In this document: positions 5,738 through 64,000 of the stretch, piece by piece
How positions within the stretch are numbered: position 1 is the first letter of the stretch
Layout: the number at the start of each line of letters is the position of its first letter
Source of the DNA: Acidimicrobiia bacterium
GTDB lineage: Bacteria > Actinomycetota > Acidimicrobiia > Spongiisociales > ZC4RG35
Reading direction: 5' to 3'
DNA: 64,000 nt
NCBI GenBank assembly: GCA_965216905.1
Contig: OZ244213.1
Location: 1,210,735 to 1,274,734 of the forward strand
Made by a program: the position numbers and the translations under genes
The notes under the pieces: model-generated
What the model was told of the DNA's origin: nothing
The model's input: the letters and a program-made list of their open reading frames with translations, nothing else
Databases searched by the model: none

Positions 5738-5781
5738 TCGCCGAACGGAGTCCGATCCGGCCACGCAGCTGATCTCCGGAC

Positions 5782-38176: not shown

Positions 38177-38664
38177 TCGTGAATCCGAGCGGTATCGGGC
38201 GTCGTGACGAGGATGCCGTCGTCATCTGCGTAGACCCAGCCGCCCGGCCGGAACTCGATGCCCGCAATGGTGATGTCGACGCCGCGTTCGCCCTCCCCGA
38301 GCTTGTTGCTGCGACGGGGGACCGCCGCCCGAGCCATCACCCCGACGGCCATGGTGCCGATCTCGGCCGAGTCGCGGATGCATCCGTCGATCACCACGCC
38401 ACCCAGCTTCCTAGTCATGGCGATACCCGCCAGACGATCCCCCAGCAACGCCACCCGAACCGAACCACCTCCATCGACGACCACGACCGAGCCCTCCGGC
38501 ACGGTCTCCAGCGCACCGAGCACCAGCACGTTGTCCTCGAAGACACGAACCGTCTCGATCGGTCCACAGAATCGACGGATGCCGCCGAAGTGGCGCAGCT
38601 CGGGACGGGCGGTGGGCACGTCGGGATGTGCATCCGAGAGGTCGGTGGTCGTCCAGGCCGTCAT
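38173..38664 (-). CDS. RraA-family protein (RNase E regulator / HMG-CPA aldolase-like).
   Basis: 163 aa. GSVVVVDGGGS and GGVVIDGCIRD are typical of RraA/MenG-like proteins. Overlaps the LLM gene. Confidence 0.8.
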   Translation of the reverse strand: MTAWTTTDLSDAHPDVPTARPELRHFGGIRRFCGPIETVRVFEDNVLVLGALETVPEGSVVVVDGGGSVRVALLGDRLAGIAMTRKLGGVVIDGCIRDSAEIGTMAVGVMARAAVPRRSNKLGEGERGVDITIAGIEFRPGGWVYADDDGILVTTPDTARIHE

Positions 38665-38813
38665 ACCCGAAGGTTACGGGCTGGTCGGAGGGGACGCACC
38701 CGGCCTCGCCGCGTGTCGGCCGAGCATGGAAAGAGGGCCCCGGCTGGGATCCGGGGCCCTCTCGTGTGTCGACGCCGCACCCGCGGAGGGGAGGACGGGG
38801 AGCGTCGAACGGC

Positions 38814-39008
38814 TCAGGTGCCTTCTGGGAGGATTCGACCCCGCACTCGGGGATACTTGACCGGAGCATGGGAGAAACAGAACTCACGGCGGTTGTAGCG
38901 GCTCAGCTTGGTGTCGCAGTCCTTCTTGGCGCACACCCGACCATCACCAAAATCCCGTGAGGGTCTGGTCACTCCCTTGATGGTCTTTCCTTTGACGACG
39001 TCTGCCAT
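38814..39008 (-). CDS. Small basic zinc-ribbon-like protein of unknown function.
   Basis: 64 aa (MADVVKGK...RVCAKKDCDTKLSRYNRREFCFSHAPV...) with a Cx4C...Cx2H arrangement. A strong RBS (GGAAGGAGGG-N6-ATG) precedes it. It is divergent from csoR. Confidence 0.5.
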   Translation of the reverse strand: MADVVKGKTIKGVTRPSRDFGDGRVCAKKDCDTKLSRYNRREFCFSHAPVKYPRVRGRILPEGT

Positions 39009-43707: not shown

Positions 43708-45066
43708 TCAGAGGGTCCGCTGGAGGAAGGTCATCGTCCGGCCCCATGCCTGGTCGAGAGCATGGACCGCTTCAGGATCGCCGTTCCGGTAGAACTCCCA
43801 ACCCATCGCCCGATAGGTCTCGAACGTGGCATCCAACCCCAGCTCGCGCATCGCCATCTCGAGCCGGTAGGCGGTGTGCGGGGATGCCTGCTCGTCCAGC
43901 TCTCCATTGTGTCCGAGGAAGGCGGCCTTGGCCGACGCCAGGTCGGGCTCGAGGTCGGGCCACGCGTTCACCGCACCGAAGGTGACACAGCCGGTGATGC
44001 TGGGTGATTCGCCGGCGAGCCACAGCGCCAGTCCCCCACCGATGCCAAACCCAACGAGCGCCACCGAACCGTCGACCGCCGGATGCTTCCTGGTCGCTTC
44101 GACGGCCTGCGTGAGACGCGCGGAGACGTCCCGGCTTCGGAGCTTGGCCGGCGCAGCCGACGCCTCGTCCTCGGAGCCGGGTCGGTCGTACAACGCCACC
44201 GGAACGACCACGTACCCGGCGTCGAGGAGCGATTCGGTGGCGGCGATTGCATAGTCGTCCATACCCCACCGATCGGGGAGCACGATCACCGCCGGACCCG
44301 AGCCGGATCTGGGCAGCTCGAAGCGGAACGGTGCCGACACCCACCCCGACTCTCGGCTCGCCCGACGAATCTCGCGCGCACGCGTCTCGATGGCGTTGGT
44401 GGCTAGCCGCCGCTCGAGCTGGAGCCCTTCCGAGAGGCTGAGGTCGGCGCCCTCGAGAACCGATTGCCGGTTGGCACGAACGGTGCCCTGCGGGAACCGG
44501 GCGATACGCTCGGCGATCTCGATCGCAGCCTGGCGAGCCGAACCGTCGGCGACCACCAGGTTGACGAGCCCCACGGCGTGTGCCTCTTCTGCGTCCATGG
44601 GACGGCCGGTCAACAGCATCTCGAGTGCCATCCCCTCTCCCACGAGCCGCGGCAGTCGTTGCGTGCCTCCGTCCATCAATGGCCGGCGCGACCGCTGCGG
44701 CTGGAATCCGAACACCGAAGACAGGCCACAGACACGCAGATCGCACCACAACGCCATCTCCAGCCCTGCCGACAGACACGGGCCCTCGATTGCGGCGATG
44801 ACCGGTTTGCTCAGACCGCTGTGGGTGAATCCGAAGACGGGCTCCGCCGTCCCGGTTTCGTCGTCGGTTGCAGTGGGCCGACCCACCGAGAAGGCCTCTC
44901 GGGTGCCGGTGACGACCGCCACGTCGAGATCGGGATCGGTTTCGAACCTTCTCCAGACGCGATCGAGCTCGGATGCCGTCTCTGCATCGATCTCATTCCG
45001 ACCGTCGCCGACGTCTATCGAGACGACTGCGATCCGGTCGACGGTGCGCGTCTCCACCGTCATCAT
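43708..45066 (-). CDS. Fusion of an N-terminal crotonase-fold (enoyl-CoA hydratase-like) domain and a C-terminal dienelactone hydrolase (alpha/beta hydrolase) domain.
   Basis: The N-terminus AIEGPCLSAGLEMALWCDLRVCGLSSVFGF is the crotonase oxyanion region. The C-terminus PAVIVLPDRWGMDDYA...GFGIGGGLAL...H is DLH-like. One continuous 452-aa ORF. Confidence 0.7.
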   Translation of the reverse strand: MMTVETRTVDRIAVVSIDVGDGRNEIDAETASELDRVWRRFETDPDLDVAVVTGTREAFSVGRPTATDDETGTAEPVFGFTHSGLSKPVIAAIEGPCLSAGLEMALWCDLRVCGLSSVFGFQPQRSRRPLMDGGTQRLPRLVGEGMALEMLLTGRPMDAEEAHAVGLVNLVVADGSARQAAIEIAERIARFPQGTVRANRQSVLEGADLSLSEGLQLERRLATNAIETRAREIRRASRESGWVSAPFRFELPRSGSGPAVIVLPDRWGMDDYAIAATESLLDAGYVVVPVALYDRPGSEDEASAAPAKLRSRDVSARLTQAVEATRKHPAVDGSVALVGFGIGGGLALWLAGESPSITGCVTFGAVNAWPDLEPDLASAKAAFLGHNGELDEQASPHTAYRLEMAMRELGLDATFETYRAMGWEFYRNGDPEAVHALDQAWGRTMTFLQRTL

Positions 45067-45167
45067 TCACCCCCGCACTCCTCGTCCAACAGCATGGCAT
45101 GCCTGGCTGTCCTGTCGACCGCCGATCACCACACGAATTCGTGTGCCCCCGAATAGGGTCTTGGCCC

Positions 45168-45539
45168 ATGTTCCTGAAGTGGTTGCACGTTGTTTCGATG
45201 TCGGTGTGGGTCGGCGGGCTCATCACCATGGGTGGGCTGGTGGCGGCGCTGCGACGGAATGGCGCTGCCCGGGAGACCTTGCAGACCCTGGCGCGGGGAT
45301 TCGGTCGGGTGTCGTGGGCGGCCATGGCCGTCGCCGTCCTGACCGGTTCGTGGATGGCGATCGACTTCATCGACCAGCCGCTCCTCGCCTGGAAGCTCGG
45401 CCTCGTGGTGGCGGTGGCGGCGCTCGCCGCCTTTCACCAGATCGCGTCCCGCAGCCAATCTCCGGCGGCACGTGGAGCCGTCCAAGCCGTCATCCTCGTC
45501 CTGTCGTTGGCAGCCGTCTGGGTGGGCATGCAACTCTGA
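45168..45539 (+). CDS. Small polytopic membrane protein (3-4 TM), unknown function.
   Basis: 123 aa and hydrophobic throughout (MFLKWLHVVSMSVWVGGLITMGGLVAAL...). Loosely resembles the CopD C-terminal region. Confidence 0.5.
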   Translation: MFLKWLHVVSMSVWVGGLITMGGLVAALRRNGAARETLQTLARGFGRVSWAAMAVAVLTGSWMAIDFIDQPLLAWKLGLVVAVAALAAFHQIASRSQSPAARGAVQAVILVLSLAAVWVGMQL

Positions 45540-45583
45540 TCGCCGGGCCAACGCGGTCAGGAAGGGATTCGAGGAAACGCGAT

Positions 45584-45608
45584 GCGGCCCCGGGTCACCC
45601 GGGGCCGC
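45584..45608. terminator. GC-rich hairpin between two convergent genes.
   Basis: GCGGCCCCGGG-TCA-CCCGGGGCCGC, an 11-bp stem, between the membrane protein (+) and bS22 (-). Confidence 0.5.
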
Positions 45609-45615
45609 ACTGCGG

Positions 45616-45705
45616 TCACTTGCGCTTGTGGCGATTCGCTTTGAGACGCTTCCGATACTTGTGCTTGGACATCTTCTTCCGGCGCTTCTTGACGAGCGAG
45701 CCCAT
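45616..45705 (-). CDS. 30S ribosomal protein bS22 (actinobacterial small basic ribosomal protein).
   Basis: 29 aa, MGSLVKKRRKKMSKHKYRKRLKANRHKRK. It closely matches the mycobacterial bS22 pattern MGSVIKKRRKRM.KKKHRKLL. Confidence 0.78.
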   Translation of the reverse strand: MGSLVKKRRKKMSKHKYRKRLKANRHKRK

Positions 45706-45764
45706 TTGTTCACCTCGATGGTCGATCTGGCGGATACTCAGCTTGGTGGCAGTCGGCATGCTGG

Positions 45765-46637
45765 TCAAACCGCACCGGCGGGCGCCACCCCGGGATCGAG
45801 GACACGACCTTCGCCTTCCAGCGCCTGCTCCAGGGCGGTCGTGACGCTCTCGATCCGTACGGCATCCACCAATGCGATCACCGAGGGCCCGGCGCCCGAC
45901 CACGCGGCGTGGGCTGCACCCGCCGACCGAGCCACATCCATCAGCCGCCCCACCTCGGGCCACGACGCCAGTCGATGACTCTCGTGGATCTCGTCGCCCG
46001 CGGCCTCGGCGAGCAGTGCCTCGTCGGCGACCATCAGCCCGGCGATGAGCGCGGCGACTCGAGCAGAGGTGCGGACGACCTCGTCCGTTCGGTATGCGCC
46101 GGGGAGCACCGCCCGAGCCTCCCGGGTCGCCAGCGCCACGGATGGCACGGCCACCAACGGCCGGAGTGAAGGGTTCCAGGGCAGGCGGTGGACGTTTCCA
46201 CCCGGCGAGCAGAGCACCAGACCGCCGTACACGGCGGCCGCGGCATTGTCTGGATGGCCTTCGACGGTGGCGACCAGCTCATAGAGTCGTTGGCGCGGAT
46301 GTTCCTCACCGTGCGCCCGCCAGGCGGCCAGGGCTCCTGCGACGTGCGCGGCGGACGACGACCCCAGCCCGCGGGCGACGGGGATGGTGCTGGAGACGGT
46401 CAGGCGAAGTGGTCGATCCTCCCCGACTGCGAGCCGGGCGGCGATCAAGACTGCGTCCTCGGCCGGGTCGATCGACTCGGTCTGCTGCTCGTGTTCCACC
46501 GACCACTCCTCGGCCGGCGCGGCCTTCACCGTGCAACGGATGTCGAGCGCCACCGCCAGACAGTCGAACCCCGGTCCGAGGTTCGCCGACGAGGCCGGCG
46601 CCGAGGCACAGGCGGGTTGGGAGTCGGTGGCCGGCAT
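45765..46637 (-). CDS. thrB: Homoserine kinase.
   Basis: GHMP kinase motif SSANLGPGFD and PVARGLGSSSA. The ORF is open to 46697; the start chosen is the ATG at MPATDSQ. Confidence 0.88.
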   Translation of the reverse strand: MPATDSQPACASAPASSANLGPGFDCLAVALDIRCTVKAAPAEEWSVEHEQQTESIDPAEDAVLIAARLAVGEDRPLRLTVSSTIPVARGLGSSSAAHVAGALAAWRAHGEEHPRQRLYELVATVEGHPDNAAAAVYGGLVLCSPGGNVHRLPWNPSLRPLVAVPSVALATREARAVLPGAYRTDEVVRTSARVAALIAGLMVADEALLAEAAGDEIHESHRLASWPEVGRLMDVARSAGAAHAAWSGAGPSVIALVDAVRIESVTTALEQALEGEGRVLDPGVAPAGAV

Positions 46638-46778
46638 GGCGGGAAGTGTACGGCGCGTGCCACCGGCCGGTTCTGAGGATGGGTGGGGCCGGCTCACGCC
46701 AAAGCGACGCTGCCGATGGCCGACATCCGGCCCACCGGTGAGACTCGAGCGAGCGTCAAACGGCTACCGTCGGCACGC

Positions 46779-46994
46779 ATGGCCGAGATCCTGGGTTTCG
46801 ACACGCTGTTCGCGGAGATGATCCTTGGCGTGGGACTGGCGTTGATCGCCGGCAACCTGTTCGCTTGGTGGAAGCACCGCACCGGACAGCGACCGGCCGA
46901 CGTCGAAGGCGAATATCGCGGAGGTCGGGTGGCCTTCCTCTCGACCGTCGGACTCGTCATGACCATCTGGGGCCTGGCAAGCCTGTTCGGTTGA
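46779..46994 (+). CDS. Small 2-TM membrane protein (hypothetical).
   Basis: 71 aa. MAEILGFDTLFAEMILGVGLALIAGNLFAWW...VGLVMTIWGLASLFG. Immediately upstream of tRNA-Gly. Confidence 0.35.
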   Translation: MAEILGFDTLFAEMILGVGLALIAGNLFAWWKHRTGQRPADVEGEYRGGRVAFLSTVGLVMTIWGLASLFG

Positions 46995-47057
46995 CCGGGA
47001 CCGCAGGCCGCTTTCCCTCGCACGCAGCGGGTCGGTATCCTCCCCCGGGACCCACCA

Positions 47058-47128
47058 GCGGGTGTAGTTCAATGGTAGAACACGAGCTTCCCAAGCTCGG
47101 AACGAGGGTTCGATTCCCTTCACCCGCT
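47058..47128 (+). tRNA. tRNA-Gly (anticodon CCC).
   Basis: Cloverleaf read manually. Acceptor GCGGGTG/CACCCGC, D-arm GTTC-AATGGTA-GAAC, anticodon stem CGAGC/GCTCG with loop TTCCCAA, and T-arm GAGGG-TTCGATT-CCCTT. 71 nt, with no encoded CCA. Confidence 0.88.
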
Positions 47129-47165
47129 CGAACGTGACCCTCCGACCACCCATCCGGACGCGCCG

Positions 47166-47726
47166 ATGATCTTCTCCGACCGTACGATTCACGCCGCCCT
47201 CGACGAGGGTCGGATCGAAATCGACCCCCTCGATCGGTCCTTCATTCAACCGTCCAGCGTCGACCTCCGGGTCGACGCCTCGTTCCGGGTGTTCGAGAAC
47301 CACCGATACCCCCACATCGACCCTCGCGCCGCCCAAGAGGATCTGACCACCGCGGTCACCGTCCCGGACGACGAGCCGTTCATCCTCCATCCCGGAGAGT
47401 TCGTCCTCGGGTCGACGCTCGAACGAGTCCGCCTCGGCGAGGACGTCGTGGCTCGGCTCGAGGGCAAATCGAGTCTCGGGAGGTTGGGACTGTTGATTCA
47501 CTCGACCGCCGGCTTCGTCGATCCCGGATTCGACGGGTACCTCACGCTCGAGCTCTCCAACGTCGCCAACCTCCCCATCGCCATCTACCCGGCGATGCGC
47601 ATCGGCCAGATCAGCTTCTATCAGATGACGACGACCGCCCAGCATCCGTACGGCAGCAGGGAAGCCGGCTCGAAGTATCAGGGTCAGCGAGGACCCACGC
47701 CCAGCCGCGCACACGTCGACTTCTGA
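47166..47726 (+). CDS. dcd: dCTP deaminase.
   Basis: 186 aa. PSSVDLRV, and GFVDPGFDG...TLEL, the dUTPase-fold Dcd motifs. Confidence 0.92.
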
Positions 47727-47926
47727 ACCTCCGCCCGCGTTGCTCGGCAAGCAGCGGATCGGCCGCGGAACGTCGTGCGATGGGCGGATGAGATTTCTCG
47801 GTCGTTCGCTCAAGAATCTGCGAGGTGCGGCCGATAGGAGTGGTACAAAGCGAATCGCACACCAAAACTCTCCTCGGAGTCCCTCCCTTCCTCCGAATCT
47901 CCCTCCCCACTGGTGAGCGATACGTC

Positions 47927-47966
47927 GAACGAGCGGCCTTGCCCGGGCCGCTCGTTCTCTTTTTCC
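47927..47966 (+). terminator. Canonical rho-independent terminator within the 312-bp dcd / SLH-protein intergenic region.
   Basis: GAACGAGCGGCC-TTGCCCG-GGCCGCTCGTTC, a 12-bp perfect stem, followed by TCTTTTTCC. It lies 200 nt after the dcd stop and 72 nt before the next start. Confidence 0.65.
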
Positions 47967-48038
47967 GGCACGCGTATCTGGCGAACCCTTCCCGGCTCTG
48001 AGAACAAGACAACGGAGGCGTCGAGCGAGGAGACAGAC

Positions 48039-49484
48039 ATGCGACGGATGGGCACGATGCTGGTGGGAGCGATCATCATGGCGCTGGCGGTCCCCGCCAT
48101 GGCCGCCCCGGTCTCACCGGTGGGTACGTTCACCGACGACAACAACAGCGTCCACGAAGCCGACATCGAAGCCATCGCCACCGCCGGCATCACCCGCGGC
48201 TGCAACCCACCCACCAACGACAACTACTGCCCAGACGACCCCGTCACCCGCGCACAAATGGCCAGCTTCCTCACCAGAGCACTCGGCCTCACCCCCATCA
48301 CCCCCACCCCACCCAGCGGAACCTTCACCGACGACGACACCAACATCCACGAAGCCGACATCGAAGCCATCGCCGCCGCCGGCATCACCCGCGGCTGCAA
48401 CCCACCCACCAACGACAACTACTGCCCAGACGACCCCGTCACCCGCGCACAAATGGCCAGCTTCCTCACCAGAGCACTCGGCCTCACCCCCATCACCCCC
48501 ACCCCACCCAGCGGAACCTTCACCGACGACGACACCAACATCCACGAAGCCGACATCGAAGCCATCGCCGCCGCCGGCATCACCCGCGGCTGCAACCCAC
48601 CCACCAACGACAACTACTGCCCAGACGACCCCGTCACCCGCGCGCAAATGGCCAGCTTCCTCACCAGAGCACTCGGCCTCACTCCGATGCCGCCGCCATC
48701 GGTGAGCGATGCGCATCTGTCGCGAGTGTTCTTCTTCTCGCCGCTGGCGCCACCCTCCACACCGGACGGGCCGTATCTGGCGACGGTCGCCCGGTACGGC
48801 GAGTCCGCCGCCACGCCCGACGACCTGCTCGACATGCTCCTCGACGGTCCGTCCGCATCCGAGGTGGCCGACGGGTTCTCGACCAACATCCCGGAAGGGG
48901 TGGTCTCCAACGAACCGGTGGCAGTCGCCGGCGGGACGGCCACCGTCGACCTGTCGGAGAACTTCGACGACGGGGGTGGCAGCGCCGCGATGCTGGGTCG
49001 ACTGGCCGAGCTGACGTTCACCCTCACCGGTCTTCCCACCATCGAGCACGTGCAACTGGAGCTGGACGACGTCCCGGTGGCGGTCTTCTCCTCGGAGGGC
49101 ATCCTGATACCGCCCGGCGGCCTCGACCGGGAGTACTTCCTCCCGACCGAAACCGAGGAGGGACCGGGCGTGGCGCCGGACATCATGCCGGAGGCGCCCG
49201 CCCACGGCGAGGCGGTGGAGAGCCCGATCGAGGTACGTGGACTCTCTCGAACCTTCGAAGCCACCGTCGAGTGGGAACTCCTCGATGCCGGCGGCGCCGT
49301 CATCGCCCAGGGCTTCGAGACCACGGGCAGCGGGACGGCAACGATGCTCCCGATGGAGATCGACATTCCGTACGTCACCGCGGGGATCCAGATGGGCACC
49401 CTGAACCTGTGGTGGACATCGCCGGCGGACGGTGCCCCGGCCCGCTCCGATCAGCGCTCGGTCCGGGTGTGGCTGACCCCTTGA
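48039..49484 (+). CDS. Secreted protein with three tandem SLH-like repeats, followed by GerMN-like and Gmad2-like (Ig-like) domains.
   Basis: Signal peptide MRRMGTMLVGAIIMALAVPAMAAP. Three copies of about 65 aa each (FTDDDTNIHEADIEAIAAAGITRGCNPPTNDNYCPDDPVTRAQMASFLTRALGL). The C-terminal two domains resemble spore-germination GerMN/Gmad2 folds. Confidence 0.7.
   Translation: MRRMGTMLVGAIIMALAVPAMAAPVSPVGTFTDDNNSVHEADIEAIATAGITRGCNPPTNDNYCPDDPVTRAQMASFLTRALGLTPITPTPPSGTFTDDDTNIHEADIEAIAAAGITRGCNPPTNDNYCPDDPVTRAQMASFLTRALGLTPITPTPPSGTFTDDDTNIHEADIEAIAAAGITRGCNPPTNDNYCPDDPVTRAQMASFLTRALGLTPMPPPSVSDAHLSRVFFFSPLAPPSTPDGPYLATVARYGESAATPDDLLDMLLDGPSASEVADGFSTNIPEGVVSNEPVAVAGGTATVDLSENFDDGGGSAAMLGRLAELTFTLTGLPTIEHVQLELDDVPVAVFSSEGILIPPGGLDREYFLPTETEEGPGVAPDIMPEAPAHGEAVESPIEVRGLSRTFEATVEWELLDAGGAVIAQGFETTGSGTATMLPMEIDIPYVTAGIQMGTLNLWWTSPADGAPARSDQRSVRVWLTP
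48120..48700. repeat. Tandem direct repeat of 195 bp, about three copies; copies 2 and 3 are identical.
   Basis: The minus-strand ORFs 48224..48418 and 48419..48613 translate to the same 64 aa, so the underlying DNA is identical over at least 2x195 bp. Copy 1 is slightly diverged. Confidence 0.85.
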
Positions 49485-49517
49485 CCCGCGGCGGTAGCCA
49501 CCCACGCTGAAACCCGG

Positions 49518-49609
49518 GCACAACCCACCGGCACAACCCACCCGGCACAACCCACCGGCACGACCCTGCTGGGAGTGAAGGACCGCGATCGGACCTCACT
49601 CCCAGCGGG
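49518..49609. repeat. 3.5 tandem copies of a 13-14 bp unit (GGCACAACCCACC), followed by a hairpin terminator shared by the convergent SLH-protein and dnaB genes.
   Basis: cgGGCACAACCCACCGGCACAACCCACCCGGCACAACCCACCGGCACGACCC, then CTGGGAGTGA...TCACTCCCAG inverted repeat (49567-49609). Confidence 0.6.
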
Positions 49610-49612
49610 TTG

Positions 49613-50962
49613 TCAGTCCCGGCCGATGTTGGCGAACAGGGTGTACTCGGGCATGAACGTCATCTTCACGACGCCGGTCGAGCCCGCCCGATGCTTCGCC
49701 ACCATCACCTCGGCCACTCCCCGGTCATCGGACTGCTCGTTGTAGTACTCGTCGCGATAGATGAAGATCACGACGTCGGCGTCCTGCTCCAACGAACCGG
49801 ACTCGCGGAGATCGCCGAGCCGGGGCCGCTTGTCTTCTCGGCTCTCGAGGTTCCGGTTCAGCTGGCTCACGGCGATGATCGGGACGTCGAGTTCCCGGGC
49901 CAGGTTCTTGAGCGAGCGGGAGATCTCGGCGATCTCCTGCTGGCGGTTCTCACGGCTCGACCCCTGCATCAGTTGGAGGTAGTCGATGACGATCAGATCC
50001 AGCCCGTGGCGTCGCTTCAGCCGGCGCGACTTCGCACGAATGTCGGTGACGGTCACCACGGGCGAATCGTCCACGAAGACAGGAGCCTTGTAGAGCCTTC
50101 CGGCGGCGTCGGTGAGCCTCGGCCAGGCCATGTCGCCGATCTGTCCGGTCTTCAGCTTCATCGAATCGATGCGTGCCTTGGAACACAGCATGCGCTGTGC
50201 GACCTCTTCCTTGGACATCTCCAGCGAGAACACAGCAACCGGTCGTCCCTGATCGACCGCCACGTTCATGGCGATGTTGGCGGTGAGGGCGCTCTTCCCC
50301 ATGGCCGGACGGGCGGCGATGATCACCAGGTTGGCCGGGTGCAGCCCCGTCAGCTTCTTGTCGAGATCGGTGAATCCGCTGGAGAGGCCGGTGATGTCGG
50401 AGCCCTGGGCTTCGAGCCGTTCCAACTCTTCCAACGTGGAGAAGAACAAGGGCCCGATGGGCTGCATCGTGTCGCCCACCTTGCGCCCGGCGACCGACAG
50501 GACGGTCTGTTCGGCCCGATCCAAGACCGTGTGGATCTCGTCATCGAGGCGGAACGCCAGGTCGGTGATCGAGGAGCCCGCCTTCATGAGGTGACGCCGC
50601 TGGCTGTGCTCCTCAACGATCCCGGCGTAGAACTCGACGTTCGCCGCCGACGGGACGATGTCGAGCAGCCGGGTGATCCCCGCCACTCCGCCCACTCGCT
50701 CCAGCTGGCCGACCCGGCGAAGCTCTTCGGCCACCGTGATCGCATCGATCGCCTGGTTGGCGTTGAACAGGTCACGAATCGCGGTGTAGATCGCCTGATG
50801 TGCCGGGAAGTAGAAGTCTTCAGGGCTCAGCTTGTCCATGACGTCGCTGGCGGCATCGTTGGAGAGCAGGATCGAGCCGATCACCGACTCCTCCGCCTCT
50901 ACCGAGTGGGGCGGGACCTTCGCTCCGGCGCGCTCGCCGCGATACTCCTGGGCCGTCGTCAC
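49613..50962 (-). CDS. dnaB: Replicative DNA helicase.
   Basis: 449 aa. Walker A ARPAMGKSAL, the DnaB N-terminal domain (PHSVEAEESVIGSIL), and no intein. Confidence 0.93.
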   Translation of the reverse strand: MTTAQEYRGERAGAKVPPHSVEAEESVIGSILLSNDAASDVMDKLSPEDFYFPAHQAIYTAIRDLFNANQAIDAITVAEELRRVGQLERVGGVAGITRLLDIVPSAANVEFYAGIVEEHSQRRHLMKAGSSITDLAFRLDDEIHTVLDRAEQTVLSVAGRKVGDTMQPIGPLFFSTLEELERLEAQGSDITGLSSGFTDLDKKLTGLHPANLVIIAARPAMGKSALTANIAMNVAVDQGRPVAVFSLEMSKEEVAQRMLCSKARIDSMKLKTGQIGDMAWPRLTDAAGRLYKAPVFVDDSPVVTVTDIRAKSRRLKRRHGLDLIVIDYLQLMQGSSRENRQQEIAEISRSLKNLARELDVPIIAVSQLNRNLESREDKRPRLGDLRESGSLEQDADVVIFIYRDEYYNEQSDDRGVAEVMVAKHRAGSTGVVKMTFMPEYTLFANIGRD

Positions 50963-51206
50963 GCTCAGCTCCTCCCATTGTCACGGTGCCCGGGATGGCA
51001 TGTCCTTCATACCGGACCCGTATGACAGAACGCGTCAACGCAGCCGGCCGAGGGGAAGTGCGGCCACCGTACCCGTCCCAACCAGAGCGCGGAAACGCGA
51101 TAGCTCGACGGGGACTCATCGGTCCTCCCCGGCCGTCCCGCGATTCAACCGAGCCGAGTCGGGTACGCCATCGACGAACGGCTCGCGAGAGAGAAGGAGG
51201 CCCGCC

Positions 51207-51785
51207 GTGGCGGACAACACGGTTTCGGAGGCGAAGCGAGAAGCGGCGGAGGTCAAGGACCTCGCCCAGGAGGAAGCAAGCAAGGTCAAGGACCAGGCAC
51301 TCGACGAGGCTCGGGACATCGCCGATGAGGCCCGCGAACGATCTCGGCGCCTGGCCGACCAGGCCGGACGGCGGGTCCGCTCGGAGGCCGAAAGGCAAGC
51401 GGCCGTGGTGGCCTCGGGCGCACGCCGGTTGAGCGGCGAACTTCGCAGCATGGCCAACCGACCCGAAGGCCCCGAGGGAATGGCAACGGCCGCGCTGCGA
51501 GGGGCGTCGGAGTGGATCGAGGGACGGCTCGCACGGTATGAGCAGGGCGGACTGGAAGGGGTGGTGAAGGACGTCGAGCGGTTCGCTCGGCAGCGCCCGG
51601 CGGCATTCCTCGCCGGTGCGGCGGCCGCCGGCGTGGCGGTCGGTCGGGTGCTCCGCAATCGCCCCGACGGCTCGTCACCATCACCAGACGTCGACTCGCC
51701 GTCCAACATCGCGGCCGCACCGGCCGGGGCGCCGGATCTCCCGGCATCGTCGGACCCGGTCGTCCGCCCCGGGGGAACCGAATGA
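51207..51785 (+). CDS. Coiled-coil, membrane-associated protein (alanine/glutamate-rich, YtxH/phasin-like) of unknown function.
   Basis: GTG start preceded by GAGAGAAGGAGG. The N-terminus KREAAEVKDLAQEEASKVKDQALDEARDIADEARER is a likely coiled coil. Hydrophobic segment AAFLAGAAAAGVAVG near the C-terminus. Confidence 0.55.
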   Translation: MADNTVSEAKREAAEVKDLAQEEASKVKDQALDEARDIADEARERSRRLADQAGRRVRSEAERQAAVVASGARRLSGELRSMANRPEGPEGMATAALRGASEWIEGRLARYEQGGLEGVVKDVERFARQRPAAFLAGAAAAGVAVGRVLRNRPDGSSPSPDVDSPSNIAAAPAGAPDLPASSDPVVRPGGTE

Positions 51786-52189
51786 CAATGGACTCGGGCC
51801 GACAGGATGAGAAGTCGCTGCCGCAACTCATCACGCAACTGGCCGATCAGGTCGGCGACTTGATCTCGACCGAGATCTCCCTCGCCAAGGCCGAGATCAC
51901 CGCCGAGATCAGGAAGTCCGGACGGGCAGGAGGGATGCTCGGAGGCGCGGCCGTGCTCGGCAATCTCGCAGTCCTGCTCTTCGGGCTCGCGGCCGCCTGG
52001 GGATTGGCAGCGATCCTCGACATCGCCGTCGGTTGGGGTTTGCTCATCGTGGCGACCGTCGTCGCCGTGTCGGCGGGCGGCCTCTTCGCGGCCGGCCGAA
52101 ACACCCTGAAAGAGGTCGACCCGGTTCCCGAGCGGGCGATCGAAACCCTGAAGGAGGTCCCATCGTGGACACGAGAGCAGAAGAACTAG
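51782..52189 (+). CDS. Holin-X-like protein (putative actinobacterial holin superfamily III; annotated elsewhere as phage holin family protein).
   Basis: 135 aa. An N-terminal amphipathic region (LPQLITQLADQVGDLISTEISLAKAEI), then two TM helices (GMLGGAAVLGNLAVLLFGLAAAW, LLIVATVVAVSAGGLFAAG). The start overlaps the upstream stop (ATGA). Confidence 0.6.
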   Translation: MTMDSGRQDEKSLPQLITQLADQVGDLISTEISLAKAEITAEIRKSGRAGGMLGGAAVLGNLAVLLFGLAAAWGLAAILDIAVGWGLLIVATVVAVSAGGLFAAGRNTLKEVDPVPERAIETLKEVPSWTREQKN

Positions 52190-52752
52190 AGCGCCGGGCA
52201 CGCCGGCAACGCTCCGACGTCGAGGAAACCATCGAAGAGATCGGAGATCGCGTCAGTCCCCGCGGGGTCTACGAGCGTCAGCGGCGAAACGTCCGTCAGA
52301 CCATTGGGGGATGGAAGGAGTCGGTGATGGGCTCACCGGCCTACGACTCCAACCACGTGTCCGACGCCGTGTCGAGTGAGAGCGGCTTGCTCGACCGGGC
52401 CGGCGACACGTTGGCGGAGGCACCCGCCGCAATCGAACGTCACACCCGCGGCAATCCGCTCGCCGCTGGGCTCATCGCGTTCGGAGCGGGTCTCCTCGCC
52501 GCCTCGGTGGCGCCACCGAGCGATCGTGAACGCCGGATGGTGGCACAGCGTGAGACACAGGTTCGCCGGGTTGCCGAGGACGTGAAGGACGCCGCCCAGG
52601 AGGTGGGGTCCGACCTGAAGGACGAGGCCAAGCGCCATATCCAAGAGGTGAAGGAGTCGGCCGCGGATTCGCTCGAGACGGTGAAGGACGAGGCTTCCGA
52701 CCGCGCCAAATCGATCAAGGACAAGGCAGAGAAGGCGGCCGATCGGATGTGA
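52165..52752 (+). CDS. DUF3618-like protein (coiled-coil, one TM, then a KE-rich C-terminal repeat region).
   Basis: GTG start preceded by AAGGAGG. EELERRARRQRSDVEETIEEIGDRVSP, TM NPLAAGLIAFGAGLLAASV, then a C-terminus with repeated DxKDxAxE-like units. Overlaps the holin-like gene by 25 nt. Confidence 0.6.
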   Translation: MDTRAEELERRARRQRSDVEETIEEIGDRVSPRGVYERQRRNVRQTIGGWKESVMGSPAYDSNHVSDAVSSESGLLDRAGDTLAEAPAAIERHTRGNPLAAGLIAFGAGLLAASVAPPSDRERRMVAQRETQVRRVAEDVKDAAQEVGSDLKDEAKRHIQEVKESAADSLETVKDEASDRAKSIKDKAEKAADRM

Positions 52753-52849
52753 GCTCTTCCGGGGTGGGTCCTCGCCACCCGAGCGATCCACCCCGGAGCC
52801 CATCCCTCGCGGCCACGTTGGAACAGACGCGGCGTCGCCGGAGTTTCGG

Positions 52850-53986
52850 CTAGTCCCCGCTCTTTCCGAAGCCGGTCGGACCTCGCCGACGCTCCCAGGG
52901 TGTGGGGCCGGTGGCGATTCGGGAACGCATCTGCCCCATCCGGGGCTCGATGACGAACTCGACGAACACGAGCTTCAGGATGGCGGTGACCGGCAAGGCC
53001 AAGAGCGCGCCGGCCACCCCGGCCAGCGCCCCGCCCGCCAGGAAGGCGACGATCACAGCCGGCGGACTCAGGTCCACGGTGTGACGCATGATCTTCGGAA
53101 CGACGAGGTAGTTCTCGAGCTGCTGATAGAGGACGATGAAGGCGAGGGAGGCGACGAACGCTTCGAGTCCGTGGGTGGCAGCCACTCCGAGTACCGCCAC
53201 CGAACCCAACACCACGCCGACGACGGGGATGACATCGGTGAACCCGACCCAAGCCGCCAGGGCGACTGCGTAGTCCAGGCCGATCACCTGGAATGCCGCG
53301 AACGACACCACGAACGCCACCAACGAGACCAGCAGATTTCCGGCGACGAAGCCCGAGATTCGGTCGACCGATTGGTTCAACACGTGGAGGACGTCGGGCC
53401 GGTCCTCGCGCTGCACGAGCCGGAGGAGGAACCGCTTCATGTCGGGGAACGCATACGAGAAGTACGGCGTCAGGATCCCGACGGTGACGAGATTCACCAC
53501 TCCGGCTCCCACGCTTCCGAGCGTGGCGACGGCGACCGACTCGTTGTCCGCCACCAATGACCCCGGGTCGAGCCGGCCCAACACCTCGCCGATTGGACCA
53601 CCACCGGCTTGGAGATCGTCGAACAGCACGGGTAGGGCGTCGACTGCATCAGCGAGCTGGGTGACGAGGGCGGGGACGACGGCCACCAAGAAGCCTCCCA
53701 CCACCACGCCGCCGGCGGCCATGACGATCGCCAGGGCCATCGCTCGGGACAGTCCCCGGTGTTCAAACCATGCGAGCGCCGGCTGGACGCCCAAGGCGAG
53801 AACGAAGGATGCGGCGACGATCAGGAGGATGGGCCGCAGCTCGAGCACGAGCAGGAGCACGACGACCACCCCGATGAGTACGACGCCGATCTTCAACCAG
53901 TAGCTGATCGGCGGCCAGCCGAGGTCGCCTCGCATCTGGCCGCCCGACCGCGTGGTCTCATCGGCTTTGGGGGCATCGTCGGGCAC
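52850..53986 (-). CDS. AI-2E family transporter (UPF0118 / PerM-like).
   Basis: 378 aa with 8 TM helices. FVVSFAAFQVIGLDYAV...VIPVVGVVLG...LALPVTA is typical of this family. Confidence 0.85.
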   Translation of the reverse strand: MPDDAPKADETTRSGGQMRGDLGWPPISYWLKIGVVLIGVVVVLLLVLELRPILLIVAASFVLALGVQPALAWFEHRGLSRAMALAIVMAAGGVVVGGFLVAVVPALVTQLADAVDALPVLFDDLQAGGGPIGEVLGRLDPGSLVADNESVAVATLGSVGAGVVNLVTVGILTPYFSYAFPDMKRFLLRLVQREDRPDVLHVLNQSVDRISGFVAGNLLVSLVAFVVSFAAFQVIGLDYAVALAAWVGFTDVIPVVGVVLGSVAVLGVAATHGLEAFVASLAFIVLYQQLENYLVVPKIMRHTVDLSPPAVIVAFLAGGALAGVAGALLALPVTAILKLVFVEFVIEPRMGQMRSRIATGPTPWERRRGPTGFGKSGD

Positions 53987-54038
53987 GCCCGATCGAGTAC
54001 CCGCCGTGACGAGATTGAATCCCGGGACCGGGTTTCGT

Positions 54039-54491
54039 TCAGGCGGGGATCACGTCCAGCGTGATCGGGAACTCCACCTCCGGATGGAGCTTCAGCCACA
54101 CCTCGTGCAACCCGATCGCCTTGATCGGCGTACGGATGTCGACCGATCGCTTCTCGACCTCGACACCGGTGAACCGAACGATCCCTTCGACCACGTCGTT
54201 GGTTCCGATCGATCCGTAGAGCTTGCCCTCGTCTCCGGCCTGGGCGGCGAGCACGACCCGGGTCCCGGCCAACTGGGTGGCGATCCGCTCGGCCGCCTCG
54301 CGGGCGCTCCGATCCGCCACCTCCCGGGCCTCCCGCAGGCGTTCGGCCTGCGTCAGCGCACCCTCGGTGGCCTTGATGGCCTTCTTCTTCGGCAGCAGGA
54401 AGTTGCGGGCATACCCGTCCGACACGTCCACCATGTCGCCCCGCTTTCCAAGCGTGCCGACGTCTTCGAGGAGAATCAGCTTGATGCTCAT
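54039..54491 (-). CDS. rplI: 50S ribosomal protein L9.
   Basis: [38 protein letters not shown], the classic L9 N-terminus. Confidence 0.93.
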
Positions 54492-54766
54492 CGGTTCCCC
54501 ACGTACGGGAGCAGGGCCATTTCGCGTGCGTTCTTGATGGCCACGGCGACGGCGCGCTGATGGCGCGGACAGTTCCCGGTCACGCGACGGGCGCGGATCT
54601 TGGCGCGGTCGGACATGAACCGGCGCAGCAGTGCAACGTCCTTGTAGTCGACATGGTCGACCTTCTCGGTGCAGAAGTGACAGACCCGGCGTTTGACCCG
54701 CCGGCCGCCGGCATCGGGACGGCGGCGCCGGCGTTGGCTGCTCTTGTTGTTGGATGAACGTGCCAT
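54488..54766 (-). CDS. rpsR: 30S ribosomal protein S18.
   Basis: 92 aa. [43 protein letters not shown]. Confidence 0.9.
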
Positions 54767-54779
54767 GGGTGCTCCTGAA

Positions 54780-55223
54780 TCAGAATGGTGCTTCGTCGGG
54801 GCCGTAGTCGGTACGGGCCACCGGTCCGGGCGGTGGAGGCGTCGAGCCTCCGAAATCGCCACCACCCTGCCGGGTGGTCCGGGTCACGGTCGCCGTCGCC
54901 CAACGGAGGCTGGGACCGATCTCGTCGATCGCCACCTCGACGATCGACCGCTTGTCGCCCTCGTTGGTCTCCCAGGAGCGCTGCTCGAGCCGACCGGTGA
55001 CGATCACCCGCATCCCCTTCTGGAGGGACTCGGCTGCACTCTCGGCCTGTTCACGCCACAGGGTGCCGCCGAAGAACGACGTATCCTCCTGCCACTCGCC
55101 ATCGCTCCCGCGCCAGCGACGATTGACGGCCATCCGAATCTTGGCCATTGCCACACCGGACGGGGTGAACCGCAGTTCCGGATCGTCGACGAGGTTGCCG
55201 GTCAGGGTCACGTTGTTGGACAT
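54780..55223 (-). CDS. ssb: Single-stranded DNA-binding protein.
   Basis: OB-fold N-terminus ([33 protein letters not shown]), a Gly/Pro-rich linker and the acidic tip DEAPF. Confidence 0.92.
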
Positions 55224-55316
55224 GGATGCTCCTTTCGTCCGCCACCGTCGAGCGTCACTCCCGGTCTCAGACCATGGTGACGTGCGCCGGTGACAGGAAT
55301 CTCGATGTGCTTCCGG

Positions 55317-55604
55317 TCAGCCGCTCGCACGGGTGAACTTGTGACGAACGACTTCGTCCTGCAGCGACAACGCCCGATCCATGAGATCGACGATCTCGAC
55401 ATCCGCCGCGAAGCCGAAGACCGTGTAATAGCCCTCGGAAAGGTGGTTGATGTCATAGGCGAAGCGCCGCTTGCCCCAGACATCGGTGGTATTGACCTCG
55501 GCTCCGGAGTCGCCGAGAGCTTTCTCGATGTCGGCGACCAACGCCTTCACATCGTCCTCGGCGAGTTCGGGCCGATGAATGGTCATCAGCTCATAACTGC
55601 GCAT
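55317..55604 (-). CDS. rpsF: 30S ribosomal protein S6.
   Basis: 95 aa, MRSYELMTIHRPELAEDDVKALV...RRFAYDINH. RBS AGGAGG upstream. Confidence 0.92.
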   Translation of the reverse strand: MRSYELMTIHRPELAEDDVKALVADIEKALGDSGAEVNTTDVWGKRRFAYDINHLSEGYYTVFGFAADVEIVDLMDRALSLQDEVVRHKFTRASG

Positions 55605-55809
55605 AGTTCCTCCTGTGGACATCGGCTCGGAGGCCGAAGGCCCCGTCGCGGTACAGCAGCACCGGAGCGGAGCAGGTGGTGGGCCGCACGACGACTGCAC
55701 AACGGCTGCCGGGCGGCGTGAACGCCACCAGCCTACCGGTCGGGAATCCACGCCGAGAAATCGCGGCGGGAAATCGCGGCGGCGAGCGGGCCGCCGGGGA
55801 GCGGGCTGG

Positions 55810-57462
55810 TCAGCCGCCCGCCTGCCGTCGCAGTTCGAGGTAACGGGGCGCCAGCAGATCCTCGTATGGAAGTCGGATCGTGAAGCACGCACCTCCCAGG
55901 CGTTCCGACTCCCGGTAGCCGGCCTCGCCGGCATGGGCGAGGGCGAGATCGCGTACTCGGGCCAGCCCCAGCCCGGCACCGGGGATGGCGGCATCGAGCT
56001 GGTGCGCACCTCGCTCGAAGCGGCCCCAGATGGCCTCTTCATGCCGGGAGGCGACCCCCGGTCCGTCGTCGTGGACCTCGATGAGGCGTGCGGTCCCGTC
56101 GCGGCGGATGACGATGGTGATCGAACCGCCGCCGTAAGTCTTGGCGTTCTCCACGAGCGCTCCCACCATCTGCCGCAGACGTCGCGGGTCGGCCATCACC
56201 TTCACGTACGGCTCGACCTCGGCCCGGACTCGCCAACCGCTCAAGTCGCCTTCGAACACGTCCATCAGCGCTCGCCGCACGAGCACCTTGCCGTCGACCG
56301 GACGCGGGTCGACCGACACCGTGTCCAACTCGGCGCGGGCGAGGGCCGCCATGTCGCTCACCAGGTCGACGAGCCGTTTGGACTGCCGGTAGATGATGGC
56401 GGACATGTCCTTGGCCTCTTCGGCGGGCAAGCGGTCCCAAGATGCGGTGAGCACCTCGGCAAACCCGGCGACGGCGGTGAGCGGCGTCCTCAGTTCATGC
56501 GACATCGAGGCCAGGAGTTGATCGCGTTCCAACTCGACCAGCCGGCGGTACTCCCGCACGGTGGCCCAAGTTCGGCCGATCAATGCCGTCATCACGGCCA
56601 CGGCTCCGGCTCCGAGCGTCGCCGGAAGAGCCTCGCCGCGTACCAACGTCGAGCCGACCACCGCCGCCACCGCCACCGCCGGAACGTAGGGGACCAGCAG
56701 GCCCAGCCGAGCGGGTCGGGCGATGATCTGGCGACTTCGGTCCTGTGGCCTGACGAGCATCCATGGCAGCAAACCGAAGAGCGAAGCGGCGACCGACTCC
56801 GCCGTGTGCAGAACCCCGGCACCGACCCCGGAACTCATCAGGATCGGGAGTGATGCCCCTGCGGTCACGGCTGCCACGAGGGTGACGAGACGACGGTCGT
56901 CGACGTACCGGCTCTGGCGAAGCGAAACCACCATGACGGCGCCGGTGACGGTCGCCGTGAGGAGCATCCCCGCGAACGGAAGCCCGGGTACGAATCGGTT
57001 GAGGAGTACCAGGACCGCCGCCACGCCGGCCGCAGCATCGAATCTGATCCGGAGGCGTCCGAACACCGAAGCTCGCAGGTACGGGAGCCGGAGGAGGCCG
57101 ACGACCACGAGCCCGTGGAACGCCGCGATCGTGGCGTCGATCTGGGCTGGTGCGCCGAGCGCCAGTCGCGCCGCGACCACCCGTCCCAACCCCAGGACGA
57201 GGGCGGCCAGTCCGACCAGACCCCACGCGGCCGCCTCGCTCCGACCGGGCACCGCCCGGGTCGCCACGATCAGTGCACCGGCGAGGATCAGCAACCCGCC
57301 GGGAACGACGTCGAGCCAGGGAACCGGCAACGACAACGCCGAGACGAACGCCACGATCACCGCAGCAACGGTCACGACCCTCCCGCCGATCGAACCCACC
57401 CACGGCACCGGAATGGTGGCCGCCAGCGGGGGCCGATCGAACGGGGTTGCCTGTGACGCCAT
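55810..57462 (-). CDS. Sensor histidine kinase with a large polytopic N-terminal membrane domain.
   Basis: HisKA H-box SMSHELRTPLTAV, and the HATPase N (VENAKTYG), G1 (DDGPGV) and G2 (GAGLGLA) boxes. The N-terminal 330 aa hold about 9-10 TM helices. No response regulator is adjacent. Confidence 0.8.
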   Translation of the reverse strand: MASQATPFDRPPLAATIPVPWVGSIGGRVVTVAAVIVAFVSALSLPVPWLDVVPGGLLILAGALIVATRAVPGRSEAAAWGLVGLAALVLGLGRVVAARLALGAPAQIDATIAAFHGLVVVGLLRLPYLRASVFGRLRIRFDAAAGVAAVLVLLNRFVPGLPFAGMLLTATVTGAVMVVSLRQSRYVDDRRLVTLVAAVTAGASLPILMSSGVGAGVLHTAESVAASLFGLLPWMLVRPQDRSRQIIARPARLGLLVPYVPAVAVAAVVGSTLVRGEALPATLGAGAVAVMTALIGRTWATVREYRRLVELERDQLLASMSHELRTPLTAVAGFAEVLTASWDRLPAEEAKDMSAIIYRQSKRLVDLVSDMAALARAELDTVSVDPRPVDGKVLVRRALMDVFEGDLSGWRVRAEVEPYVKVMADPRRLRQMVGALVENAKTYGGGSITIVIRRDGTARLIEVHDDGPGVASRHEEAIWGRFERGAHQLDAAIPGAGLGLARVRDLALAHAGEAGYRESERLGGACFTIRLPYEDLLAPRYLELRRQAGG

Positions 57463-57561
57463 GGGTTTCGTTCTGTGTCTCGAGAGCGTGTCCGATGAAT
57501 GCATCGGCAATCGAGGCTCCGCGCTGTAGATGGCCCATCCCGAGTCGAAGGGCTGCAACCC

Positions 57562-58143
57562 TCACTCGCCGAGGAGCAGGGTGCCGATCTCTACATCACC
57601 CAGCAGTCCGGCCGGCGTCTCGAGCGCCCACCGGACCGGCTGCGAGGAGGAGTACCCCGGGCACGGAGCCTCCTCGCAGGGGATCATCGGTATCAATTCC
57701 ACCATCCGTCCACGGGCATCGAACAGTGCGAGATCGAGTGCTACGAGCGTGTTCCGCATCGTGAATCTGACGACCTGTTCGCCCGGAAGCACGAACAGCA
57801 TGCCATCGAAGTCGCCGAACTCCTCCACCTCCTGCAACCCGGTTGCTCGGTCACCGGGCTGGACCGCCACGACGACGGTCAACTCCCGCTCACCGAGTCG
57901 AATCCGGGACACGTCGAACGGTGGGAGATCTCCGTAGTCCAGTCGCTCGACCTCGACCGGCGAGGTGTCGGTCGCCGGAGTGACGGTCGTTGCGGGCCGC
58001 GTTGCAGAAGGTTCCGCCTGCTCGACGATGGACGGCACCGTGGTCGGCAGTCCATCGATGCGACCGTTCGACGATCGGGGCGCGGCCGCACATGCGACCG
58101 TCGCCAGCGCCAGCACGACGACGGCCAGGCACCGCCGGATCAC
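57562..58143 (-). CDS. DUF192-like lipoprotein.
   Basis: Lipobox LALATVACAA. FTMRNTLVALDLALFDARGRMVE resembles the DUF192 (COG1430) core. Confidence 0.55.
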   Translation of the reverse strand: MIRRCLAVVVLALATVACAAAPRSSNGRIDGLPTTVPSIVEQAEPSATRPATTVTPATDTSPVEVERLDYGDLPPFDVSRIRLGERELTVVVAVQPGDRATGLQEVEEFGDFDGMLFVLPGEQVVRFTMRNTLVALDLALFDARGRMVELIPMIPCEEAPCPGYSSSQPVRWALETPAGLLGDVEIGTLLLGE

Positions 58144-59075: not shown

Positions 59076-59273
59076 GGCGGTCACTGAGACGCCGCAGTCG
59101 TTGGCATGCCGGTCATCGGGTGCTCCTGTCTCCCCACCGCGCATCGGCGTGGTTGAGGGATGTCGCGTGCCTGGTTCTCGAGAGCGTCCGACCTCGACCG
59201 CCCACCCAAGGGTCGCCCGTGTCAATACTCCTGGCCATCGTACCGGGAGCCGCCGCCAGTGTCGGGCGCCGGT

Positions 59274-61326: not shown

Positions 61327-61435
61327 GGCCGATGAGATTGGCACACGTGAGGCAGCGACCCAACATCGCCTTCCGTGCTTGCCCGAGCCGACGACCGCCC
61401 TGCCCCCGGCGGTCGTCGCCTTGTTGGGGCGTGCT

Positions 61436-62329: not shown

Positions 62330-62333
62330 GATG

Positions 62334-63107: not shown

Positions 63108-63281
63108 CCCACCGCCATCGTACCGACAAAGGGGAGGGCTTCGACTCGATCACACGGTCCCCTCGCCACCGCCGAGGTCGGTTCAGCCCGGTCCGCCTCG
63201 ACGAGGGTCCTTGTCCAGTCCGTCGGTGTGCCGACACGATGCTTCGTGACTACGTCCGTTCAATCCGTACCATCTCAGCCA

Positions 63282-63959: not shown

Positions 63960-64000
63960 GACAAACCCGGCCGCGGCGGGAGTTTCGATGAGCAACACTG

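Follow-up and report, generated by a model that had tools for sequence, protein, structure and literature searches.

A conserved RNA element between dcd and dnaB in Acidimicrobiia, probably a small non-coding RNA gene of a new family

The DNA considered here (64,000 nucleotides of contig OZ244213.1 from an Acidimicrobiia bacterium, denoted in full as the window) contains a gap of 312 bp (47727-48038) between dcd, which encodes dCTP deaminase, and a gene for a secreted protein with SLH and GerMN domains (denoted here as SLH/GerMN). The original prediction, made from the letters of the window, had taken this gap for a riboswitch or a small RNA (sRNA) ahead of the wall-protein gene. Comparison with related loci revealed an element, conserved in both sequence and structure, that has the orientation of dcd and is placed between this gene and dnaB. 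We consider it fairly probable that positions 47809-47966 correspond to a small non-coding RNA gene of a new family, with a promoter-like motif, a transcript of about 115-130 nt, a terminator hairpin, and C/U-rich strands that would pair with Shine-Dalgarno (SD) sites. The parts of the element are as follows, those described as unpaired being so in the minimum free energy (MFE) structure.

47809-47835, + strand: promoter-like motif CTCAAG-N15-GCCGAT, with a putative -35 at 47809-47814 and a putative -10 core, CGAT, at 47832-47835
47836-47849, + strand: purine-rich stretch and ACAA(A/C) motif (AGGAGTGGTACAAA), found in 13/13 copies
47850-47864, + strand: 5' arm of stem P1, GCG-A-AUCGC-A-CACCA, which pairs with 47911-47925 in the single-sequence MFE structure
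47865-47873, + strand: J1, single-stranded and C/U-rich (AAACUCUCC), unpaired
47874-47879 / 47891-47896, + strand: hairpin P2, UCGGAG/CUCCGA, with the 11-nt loop UCCCUCCCUUC at 47880-47890
47897-47910, + strand: J2, single-stranded and C/U-rich (AUCUCCCUCCCCAC), unpaired
47911-47925, + strand: 3' arm of P1, UGGUG-A-GCGAU-A-CGU, complementary to 47850-47864
47927-47957, + strand: terminator hairpin P3, 13 pairs (9 G-C) and a 5-nt loop, UGCCC
47958-47966, + strand: U tract UCUUUUUCC, a feature of the window and not of the family

The first piece of evidence came from the fold. The stretch 47842-47966 reached -47.3 kcal/mol (z = -5.7). A single structure made up 48% of the ensemble; in it, P1 encloses a large loop carrying three C/U-rich strands, namely J1, the P2 loop and J2 (UCUCCCUCCCC). 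The gap as a whole folded no better than shuffled sequences (z = -0.81), which held for either strand, and the notion of the 312 bp as a single unit was rejected, given that its first 82 nt yielded z = -0.17 compared to the -5.7 of 47842-47966. The description of the gap as a CU-rich region of lower GC content was correct in its first half, as a C/U-rich stretch indeed spans 47866-47910, while the GC content shows only a marginal dip (0.61-0.62 versus 0.64-0.73 nearby).

A second piece of evidence was provided by homologous loci. When the gap was compared by blastn with all fetched loci, a single match was obtained, from 47866-47906 to L001 (90% identity), which represents the closest genome (dcd 83% identical). 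The L001 copy sits in another context, after a TPR-like open reading frame (ORF) of 274 aa that follows dcd, and behind it come first a GC hairpin whose sequence differs and next non-coding tandem repeats of 118 bp. The core of this match is the P2 hairpin, which is also that of the pattern CTCTCCTCGGAGTCC-N6-10-CTCCGA, and a metagenome scan with this pattern added seven more loci, all with the same layout. In total, 13 distinct copies were collected from metagenome-assembled genomes (MAGs) of Acidimicrobiia and from metagenomes, all of them on the dcd strand; at the 12 homologous loci the element lies 3' of dcd, or of dcd plus a TPR-like ORF of 271-274 aa. Single-sequence MFE folds of the homologues displayed the same P1/P2/P3 layout despite differing P1 and P3 sequences. 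The P2 stem is invariant in 13/13 copies and its loop is always C/U-rich (9-12 nt), CUCUCC in J1 is nearly invariant, and J2 is kept as a UCUCUCYCC-type sequence in all copies. The arms of P1, in turn, diverge among lineages while their complementarity stays, as illustrated by AUCGC-A-CACCA/UGGUG-A-GCGAU, AUCGCCUGC/GCGGGCGGU, CCGCCCGC/GCGGGCGG and CCCACCGU/ACGGUGGG.

A covariance model (CM), named R1, was built from a hand-made, N-padded structural alignment, and the copies were then realigned by the CM. In the hand-made alignment, 97.4% of the cells were paired, compared to 33-47% for slid partners, and 15 both-side changes were present. The CM alignment of the 13 distinct copies gave 95.8% against 32-50%, with both-side (compensatory) changes in 16 pairs (10 of the 12 in P1 and 6 of the 12 in P3). 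None of 500 shuffles reached the observed value in four of five measures, and eight of 500 did so in the fifth, that of further pair types. P2 does not vary in the 13 copies and hence yields no covariation signal. The G-U pairs that occur (UG three times in two P1 columns and GU twice in P3) would be A-C mismatches on the other strand, which assigns the structure to the + (dcd) strand. Since the P2 loops are of 9, 10, 11 or 12 nt and the lengths of J1 and J2 differ by 1-3 nt as well, no reading frame survives the conserved core. A small-ORF reading, based on two 58-aa ORFs (47740-47916 and 47825-48001), was rejected accordingly, given the frame-breaking indels in the core and the compensatory nature of the substitutions. 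The element thus combines a covariation-backed structure with no coding potential, the two features sought in an sRNA gene.

R1 scored all copies at 68-98 bits. It was also used in a prospective manner: dcd homologues were picked by protein identity alone (83-88%), and their contigs were then searched with the model. The element was found in 5/6 look-ups (L096/97, L098, L099-104, L105 and L106/107; 68-85 bits), just 3' of dcd or of dcd plus a 272-aa ORF. The exception was L108/109, without the element, where a gene for an ECF sigma factor directly follows dcd. A search of 87 other loci with R1 produced weak matches only; those in L036 and L049 were judged spurious, and the matches in L003 and L004 turned out to represent a rearranged variant, described below, which was all that R1 found in more distant Acidimicrobiia (dcd 72-81% identical). 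A search of the available literature brought up no described dcd-associated or Acidimicrobiia RNA motif matching the element. From these sequence searches, it is most likely confined to a clade of Acidimicrobiia and constitutes a previously undescribed family.

The promoter-like motif was a further conserved component. A sequence of the form CTCAA[G/C]-N14-15-GCCGAT precedes most of the 13 copies, with hexamers and spacing conserved and the spacer sequence not, and degenerate forms are present in L089, L095 and L096 (CTTCAG...GCCGAA, CTTTAG... and ...GCCGAC). The strict motif has two exact matches in the window versus 0.04 expected; in 162 kb of loci from the clade it occurs 14 times, 12 of them directly upstream of the element or of the L003/L004 variant. 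The distance of 16-17 nt between CTCAAG and CGAT fits that of a -35/-10 pair. In 13/13 copies GCCGAT is followed by a purine-rich run and, at 10-14 nt, by ACAAC or ACAAA, and transcription probably starts within 47836-47849. The comparison of loci showed that the motif travels with the element and that the element is independent of the SLH/GerMN gene, and we infer that the sRNA is transcribed separately from this motif.

The best evidence for motif and RNA forming one unit, independent of dcd, comes from the variant in L003 (5516-5644, - strand) and L004 (5613-5740, - strand). Here, the rearranged sequence is about 1 kb away from dcd and encoded on the other strand. Still present are the motif, a GGAG/CUCC hairpin with the loop UCCCCCCUUC, an outer stem and a terminal GC hairpin; the fold has z = -4.5, and surE follows after about 35 nt. 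A further hairpin with a C/U-rich loop (CACCCUCAGCC-ACUCCCUCCC-GGCUGGGGGUG) was observed just upstream of the variant's motif.

These data bear on an alternative that we regard as possible but unlikely, namely that the element is a structured 3' UTR (untranslated region) of the dcd operon, acting as a composite terminator or stability element and perhaps processed to a 3'-UTR-derived RNA, with no promoter of its own and with the motif serving another purpose. Indeed, 13/13 canonical copies are co-oriented with dcd and located 18-85 nt after dcd or the TPR-like ORF, for most of them without a clear terminator in between, and P3 stands at the end of a convergent gene, where a terminator is expected. 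A similar stem with a C/U-rich loop, followed by a terminator, is found after a small ORF at 38726-38830 (- strand), and the paper on the mycobacterial 6C sRNA cites the hypothesis that C-rich stem-loops are alternative terminators (PMC6486639). However, a terminator needs neither an invariant core of 17 nt nor three conserved C/U-rich strands, the motif CTCAA[G/C]-N14-15-GCCGAT is almost exclusive to the element, and in L003/L004 motif and RNA are found together on the opposite strand and at a distance from dcd. In addition, the spacer between the upstream gene and the motif (about 18-40 nt in relatives) contains in L094 and L106 a small hairpin with a U run, placed between the upstream ORF and the motif.

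The terminator hairpin of the original prediction was confirmed. P3 alone has a folding energy of -24.7 kcal/mol (z = -6.6, with 0/200 shuffles equally stable), its stem has 13 bp and not the 12 first given, and it is followed by UCUUUUUCC and located, as had been stated, 72 nt ahead of the ATG of SLH/GerMN at 48039. In a terminator scan covering 1-40000 and 44001-64000 of the window (60 kb), in which the sequence directly 3' of P3 was recorded as TCTTTTTCC, P3 was the sole long-stem site; the remaining matches had 5-8 pairs each, in numbers equal to those of shuffled sequence, which bears out the view that terminators are rare in the window. Both a GC-rich stem-loop and a direct U tract, as in an intrinsic (Rho-independent) terminator, are therefore present here. 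P3 differs from the canonical case in being one domain of a larger conserved RNA, most members of which have no U tract: the stem is paired in 100% of the 13 copies and kept in every one, while the tails are of the GCGUCAG-, UCGUGC- or AUUACC-type, with a full U tract in the window only and a partial one in L105 (CUUUAGUUUGG). Canonical terminators after dcd were essentially absent from the 80 genomes surveyed. In this small sample, U-richer tails tend to accompany downstream genes on the same strand, which fits a role in insulating such genes. It had been conceded from the outset that the terminator might simply be the 3' end of dcd; this was partly right, since most copies lack an obvious terminator between dcd and the element and P3 probably ends read-through from dcd as well.

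The proposal of a riboswitch fared differently. The original prediction had invoked ydaO (c-di-AMP) or c-di-GMP-I/II riboswitches, and a search of the whole window against Rfam 15 at the gathering score found only tRNA, with no ydaO and no c-di-GMP-I/II. No family matched 47650-48120 even at E<=10 in the Infernal/Rfam check that had been suggested, nor was the element matched at E<=5 in five homologous loci, so that no covariance model of these riboswitches hit at any threshold tried. No confirmation was obtained for the resemblance to cyclic-dinucleotide riboswitches perceived in GGTACAAAGCGAATCGCACACC; this segment comprises the 5' leader and the 5' arm of P1. What the element has in common with ydaO and c-di-GMP-I/II riboswitches is only that it precedes a cell-envelope gene and has a terminator hairpin; it differs from them in lacking a covariance-model match and in the fact that its downstream gene is not conserved. 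Of the initial pair of options, the sRNA is supported by covariation and by a promoter-like motif of its own, while the Rfam result and the SLH orthologues that lack the element speak against the riboswitch with its expression platform.

The best of these SLH/GerMN orthologues is 60% identical, and they adjoin a divergent LigB gene; their upstream regions of about 195 bp share with the window an RBS (ribosome-binding site) and the start codon alone. The idea of a cis-regulatory leader of SLH/GerMN was rejected, as the upstream regions of the orthologues are unrelated and the element is present at 12 other loci without this gene. Moreover, SLH/GerMN was found 3' of dcd in 0/80 dcd loci from species-representative genomes, loci in which the region delimited by dcd and the convergent dnaB differs in its genes. 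As far as gene order tells, the wall-protein gene is thus local and lineage-specific cargo of the dcd-dnaB interval and not the conserved partner of the element.

The same comparative data largely refute, and in our view render highly improbable, the more general possibility of a cis-acting leader, riboswitch or attenuator in which P3 would be the expression platform for whatever gene follows. Genes on the same strand do follow P3 in some cases, 72 nt away in the window and at 35-60 nt in L090 and L105 (a Septum_form lipoprotein gene, of which L094 retains a remnant) and in L003/L004 (surE), and where P3 has no U tract, a conserved promoter could feed such genes by read-through. These genes are, however, mutually unrelated, and the downstream gene is convergent, mostly dnaB, in L089, L091-93, L095, L096, L098, L099-104 and L106. 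The absence of an Rfam riboswitch match and of the element from SLH/GerMN orthologues argue in the same direction, no conserved alternative (antiterminator) pairing was seen, and the strong U tract of the window favours insulation over controlled read-through.

Regarding function, three groups of known sRNAs offer points of comparison. In enterobacteria, sRNAs of the MicL and DapZ type have their own promoter and a terminator in common with the upstream gene, and depend on Hfq. Our element resembles them in that it follows a conserved, co-oriented gene at its 3' end, with a promoter-like motif directly behind the upstream ORF or at the end of it and a final hairpin that would serve both; the sequences are unrelated, and the promoter of the element is a predicted one. 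The RoxS and FsrA-type sRNAs of Firmicutes carry several C-rich single-stranded motifs thought to pair with SD sequences. They differ from the element in phylum, sequence and structure, with no sign of common descent (RoxS is named in PMC8216469). The closest parallel was the 6C sRNA (also B11, RF01066) of Mycobacterium, whose C-rich loops bind G-rich RBS regions of panD and dnaB and repress them without Hfq or ProQ (PMC6486639). Both are small RNAs of high-GC Gram-positives with C-rich single-stranded loops on stable stems and a terminal hairpin, and the element also adjoins dnaB and exposes CCUCC/CCCUCCC strands. Nevertheless, 6C is made of two C-loop hairpins, whereas the element has one hairpin and two junction strands inside a closing stem; its loops are C/U-rich and not C-only, it occurs in Acidimicrobiia 3' of dcd, and it is known from sequence alone. 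The 6C model RF01066 gave no match on the element (E<=10, or E<=5 for the homologous loci), and this, together with the different architecture, means that it is not a member of the 6C family.

By analogy with 6C, a mechanism can be proposed. Briefly, the sRNA would be transcribed from CTCAAG-N15-GCCGAT, and P3 would end both the sRNA and the read-through from dcd. The exposed CCUCC/CCCUCCC strands would pair with the G-rich SD regions of target mRNAs, and this pairing would repress translation in a chaperone-independent manner. In the window, SLH/GerMN was inserted downstream and P3 has acquired its full U tract, which probably insulates the new gene from transcription of the sRNA and dcd. As for targets, the dnaB RBS of the window (GGGAGGAG) is complementary to CCUCCC, as any SD site is, and its duplex of -27.6 kcal/mol falls within the background. 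In a duplex scan of the whole window the start regions of dnaB, SLH and dcd were not outliers, a method that is too unspecific for seeds resembling an anti-SD sequence.

A different function, which we hold to be improbable, is that of a protein- or ribosome-binding RNA, either a sponge or decoy for a factor recognising C/U strands or a mimic of the CCUCC tail of 16S rRNA. The clustering of three C/U-rich single strands would suit it, the invariance of the P2 stem without covariation implies that its sequence matters beyond pairing, and the duplex scan singled out no preferred mRNA partner among the neighbours. On the other hand, no such protein is known for the group, and pairing with mRNA, direct and chaperone-independent, is what has been documented in the phylum (PMC6486639).

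Several considerations weigh against an sRNA gene with its own promoter that acts on SD sites. Promoter, 5' end and termination have all been deduced from the DNA letters. A scan for the sigma-70 consensus found no match at the motif; its CGA(T) -10 core and AAC/AAG -35 are reminiscent of ECF-type promoters. A proper U tract is absent after P3 in 11-12 of the 13 copies. In most copies the stretch from dcd to the element contains no obvious transcription stop, and the element could therefore be a dcd 3' UTR only. With respect to the structure, MAFFT plus RNAalifold alone recovered only P2 and P3 (P3 with five compensatory pairs), missing P1 because its arms diverge in sequence; P1 was first aligned by hand, and CM alignments lean toward the structure built into them. 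The cell counts are likewise inflated, as there are several close relatives among the 13 sequences. Finally, a crude duplex scan gave -27.6 kcal/mol for dnaB and -31.8 for SLH, compared to a background of -22.6 +/- 7.0, and since any SD site matches CCUCC, complementarity singles out no target.

If the favoured reading of a new-family sRNA gene is extended, a broader picture can be drawn, which is speculative and, taken as a whole, rather unlikely: a clade-specific riboregulator that would replace 6C in Acidimicrobiia, driven by an ECF-like sigma factor and using three anti-SD-like strands to throttle translation of genes of replication, division or envelope (the neighbouring dnaB being the obvious candidate), with at least one further sRNA under this class of promoter at 61307-61432 and with the dcd-sRNA-dnaB junction as an insertion hot spot where envelope genes such as SLH/GerMN and Septum_form lipoproteins would receive read-through from its promoter.

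Acidimicrobiia are an abundant and mostly uncultured class of actinobacteria from soils, sediments and waters, and to our knowledge almost nothing is known about their RNA regulators. The result is a candidate sRNA family with clear limits and support from covariation, accompanied by a usable covariance model. The candidate promoter motif could define a regulon, and the dcd-dnaB address makes the element easier to find in MAGs and metatranscriptomes. The work also corrects an attractive but wrong annotation, that of a cyclic-dinucleotide riboswitch on a wall-protein gene, and extends to another group the idea of C-rich single strands as sRNA seeds in high-GC bacteria without Hfq. Its importance is moderate, because it provides no new principle but a new RNA family of a familiar kind, that of sRNAs with C-rich loops.

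The genomic surroundings of the element in the window are made of the following features.

47058-47129, + strand: tRNA-Gly(CCC), 36 nt upstream of dcd
47166-47726, + strand: dcd, dCTP deaminase (Pfam PF22769 DCD, 3.9e-49), the upstream neighbour kept beside the element
47727-47808, + strand: non-conserved spacer from the dcd stop to the promoter-like motif, folding like shuffles (z = -0.17)
48039-49484, + strand: gene of a secreted protein with three SLH domains, GerMN and Gmad2 (Pfam), starting with the ATG at 48039
49613-50962, - strand: dnaB (Pfam DnaB and DnaB_C), the conserved convergent boundary of the variable interval

Exact-protein look-ups with the dcd and SLH proteins of the window returned no record. 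A tRNA is likewise found near dcd in the relatives L089 and L092, for which reason tRNA - dcd - sRNA - dnaB(-) appears to be the ancestral order; dnaB is convergent with dcd and the element in L091, L093, L094, L098, L099-104 and L105. Judged from gene content, insertions seem to favour the stretch that separates the element from dnaB, as at a hot spot. The cargo observed in it comprises the Septum_form lipoprotein gene (L090 and L105), SLH/GerMN (the window), a 765-aa protein without Pfam match (L096), and a DksA/TraR zinc finger together with a PIN/FitA-like toxin-antitoxin pair (L106). The dnaB of L106 (4946-6567, - strand) carries an intein, with Pfam Intein_splicing between two DnaB_C segments. 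Within the SLH/GerMN gene of the window, two identical tandem repeats of 195 bp (48224-48418 and 48419-48613) encode SLH-like modules, and a third, diverged copy precedes the identical pair; these repeats account for the strong C-over-G skew in 48100-48700. In L001, at least 2.6 copies of the 118-bp repeat directly follow the element (5570-5880) up to the end of the contig. This repeat is apparently non-coding, as its period is not a multiple of three and stops occur in each copy, and it probably broke the assembly.

Two other places in the window deserve mention. In 61307-61432 (+ strand), the second exact CTCAAG-N15-GCCGAT is located at 61307-61333 and is followed by a stretch of about 90 nt with two hairpins (z = -3.0), the second of them terminator-like (CGACGACCGCC-CUGCCCCC-GGCGGUCGUCG, then CCUUGUUGGGG). 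This stretch is situated in a gap of about 100 nt between two convergent ORFs without Pfam match, and it may represent a second small RNA with the same class of promoter. The other place, 38726-38830 (- strand), is a weak match to R1 (19.4 bits). The segment 38726-38813 (- strand) was not counted as a second copy of the family, being part of the 3' UTR of a small ORF and having a 'promoter' located inside coding sequence. This ORF, which is cysteine-rich (…CAKKDCDTKLSRYNRREFCFSH…), directly precedes the match, an RraA-like gene (38173-38664) follows about 65 nt further on, and the match contains a stem, UCGACGC/GCGUCGA, around the C/U-rich strand UCCCCGUCCUCCCCUCC, and then ACAC, the hairpin GAGAGGGCCCCGG-AUCCCAG-CCGGGGCCCUCU and UUCC.

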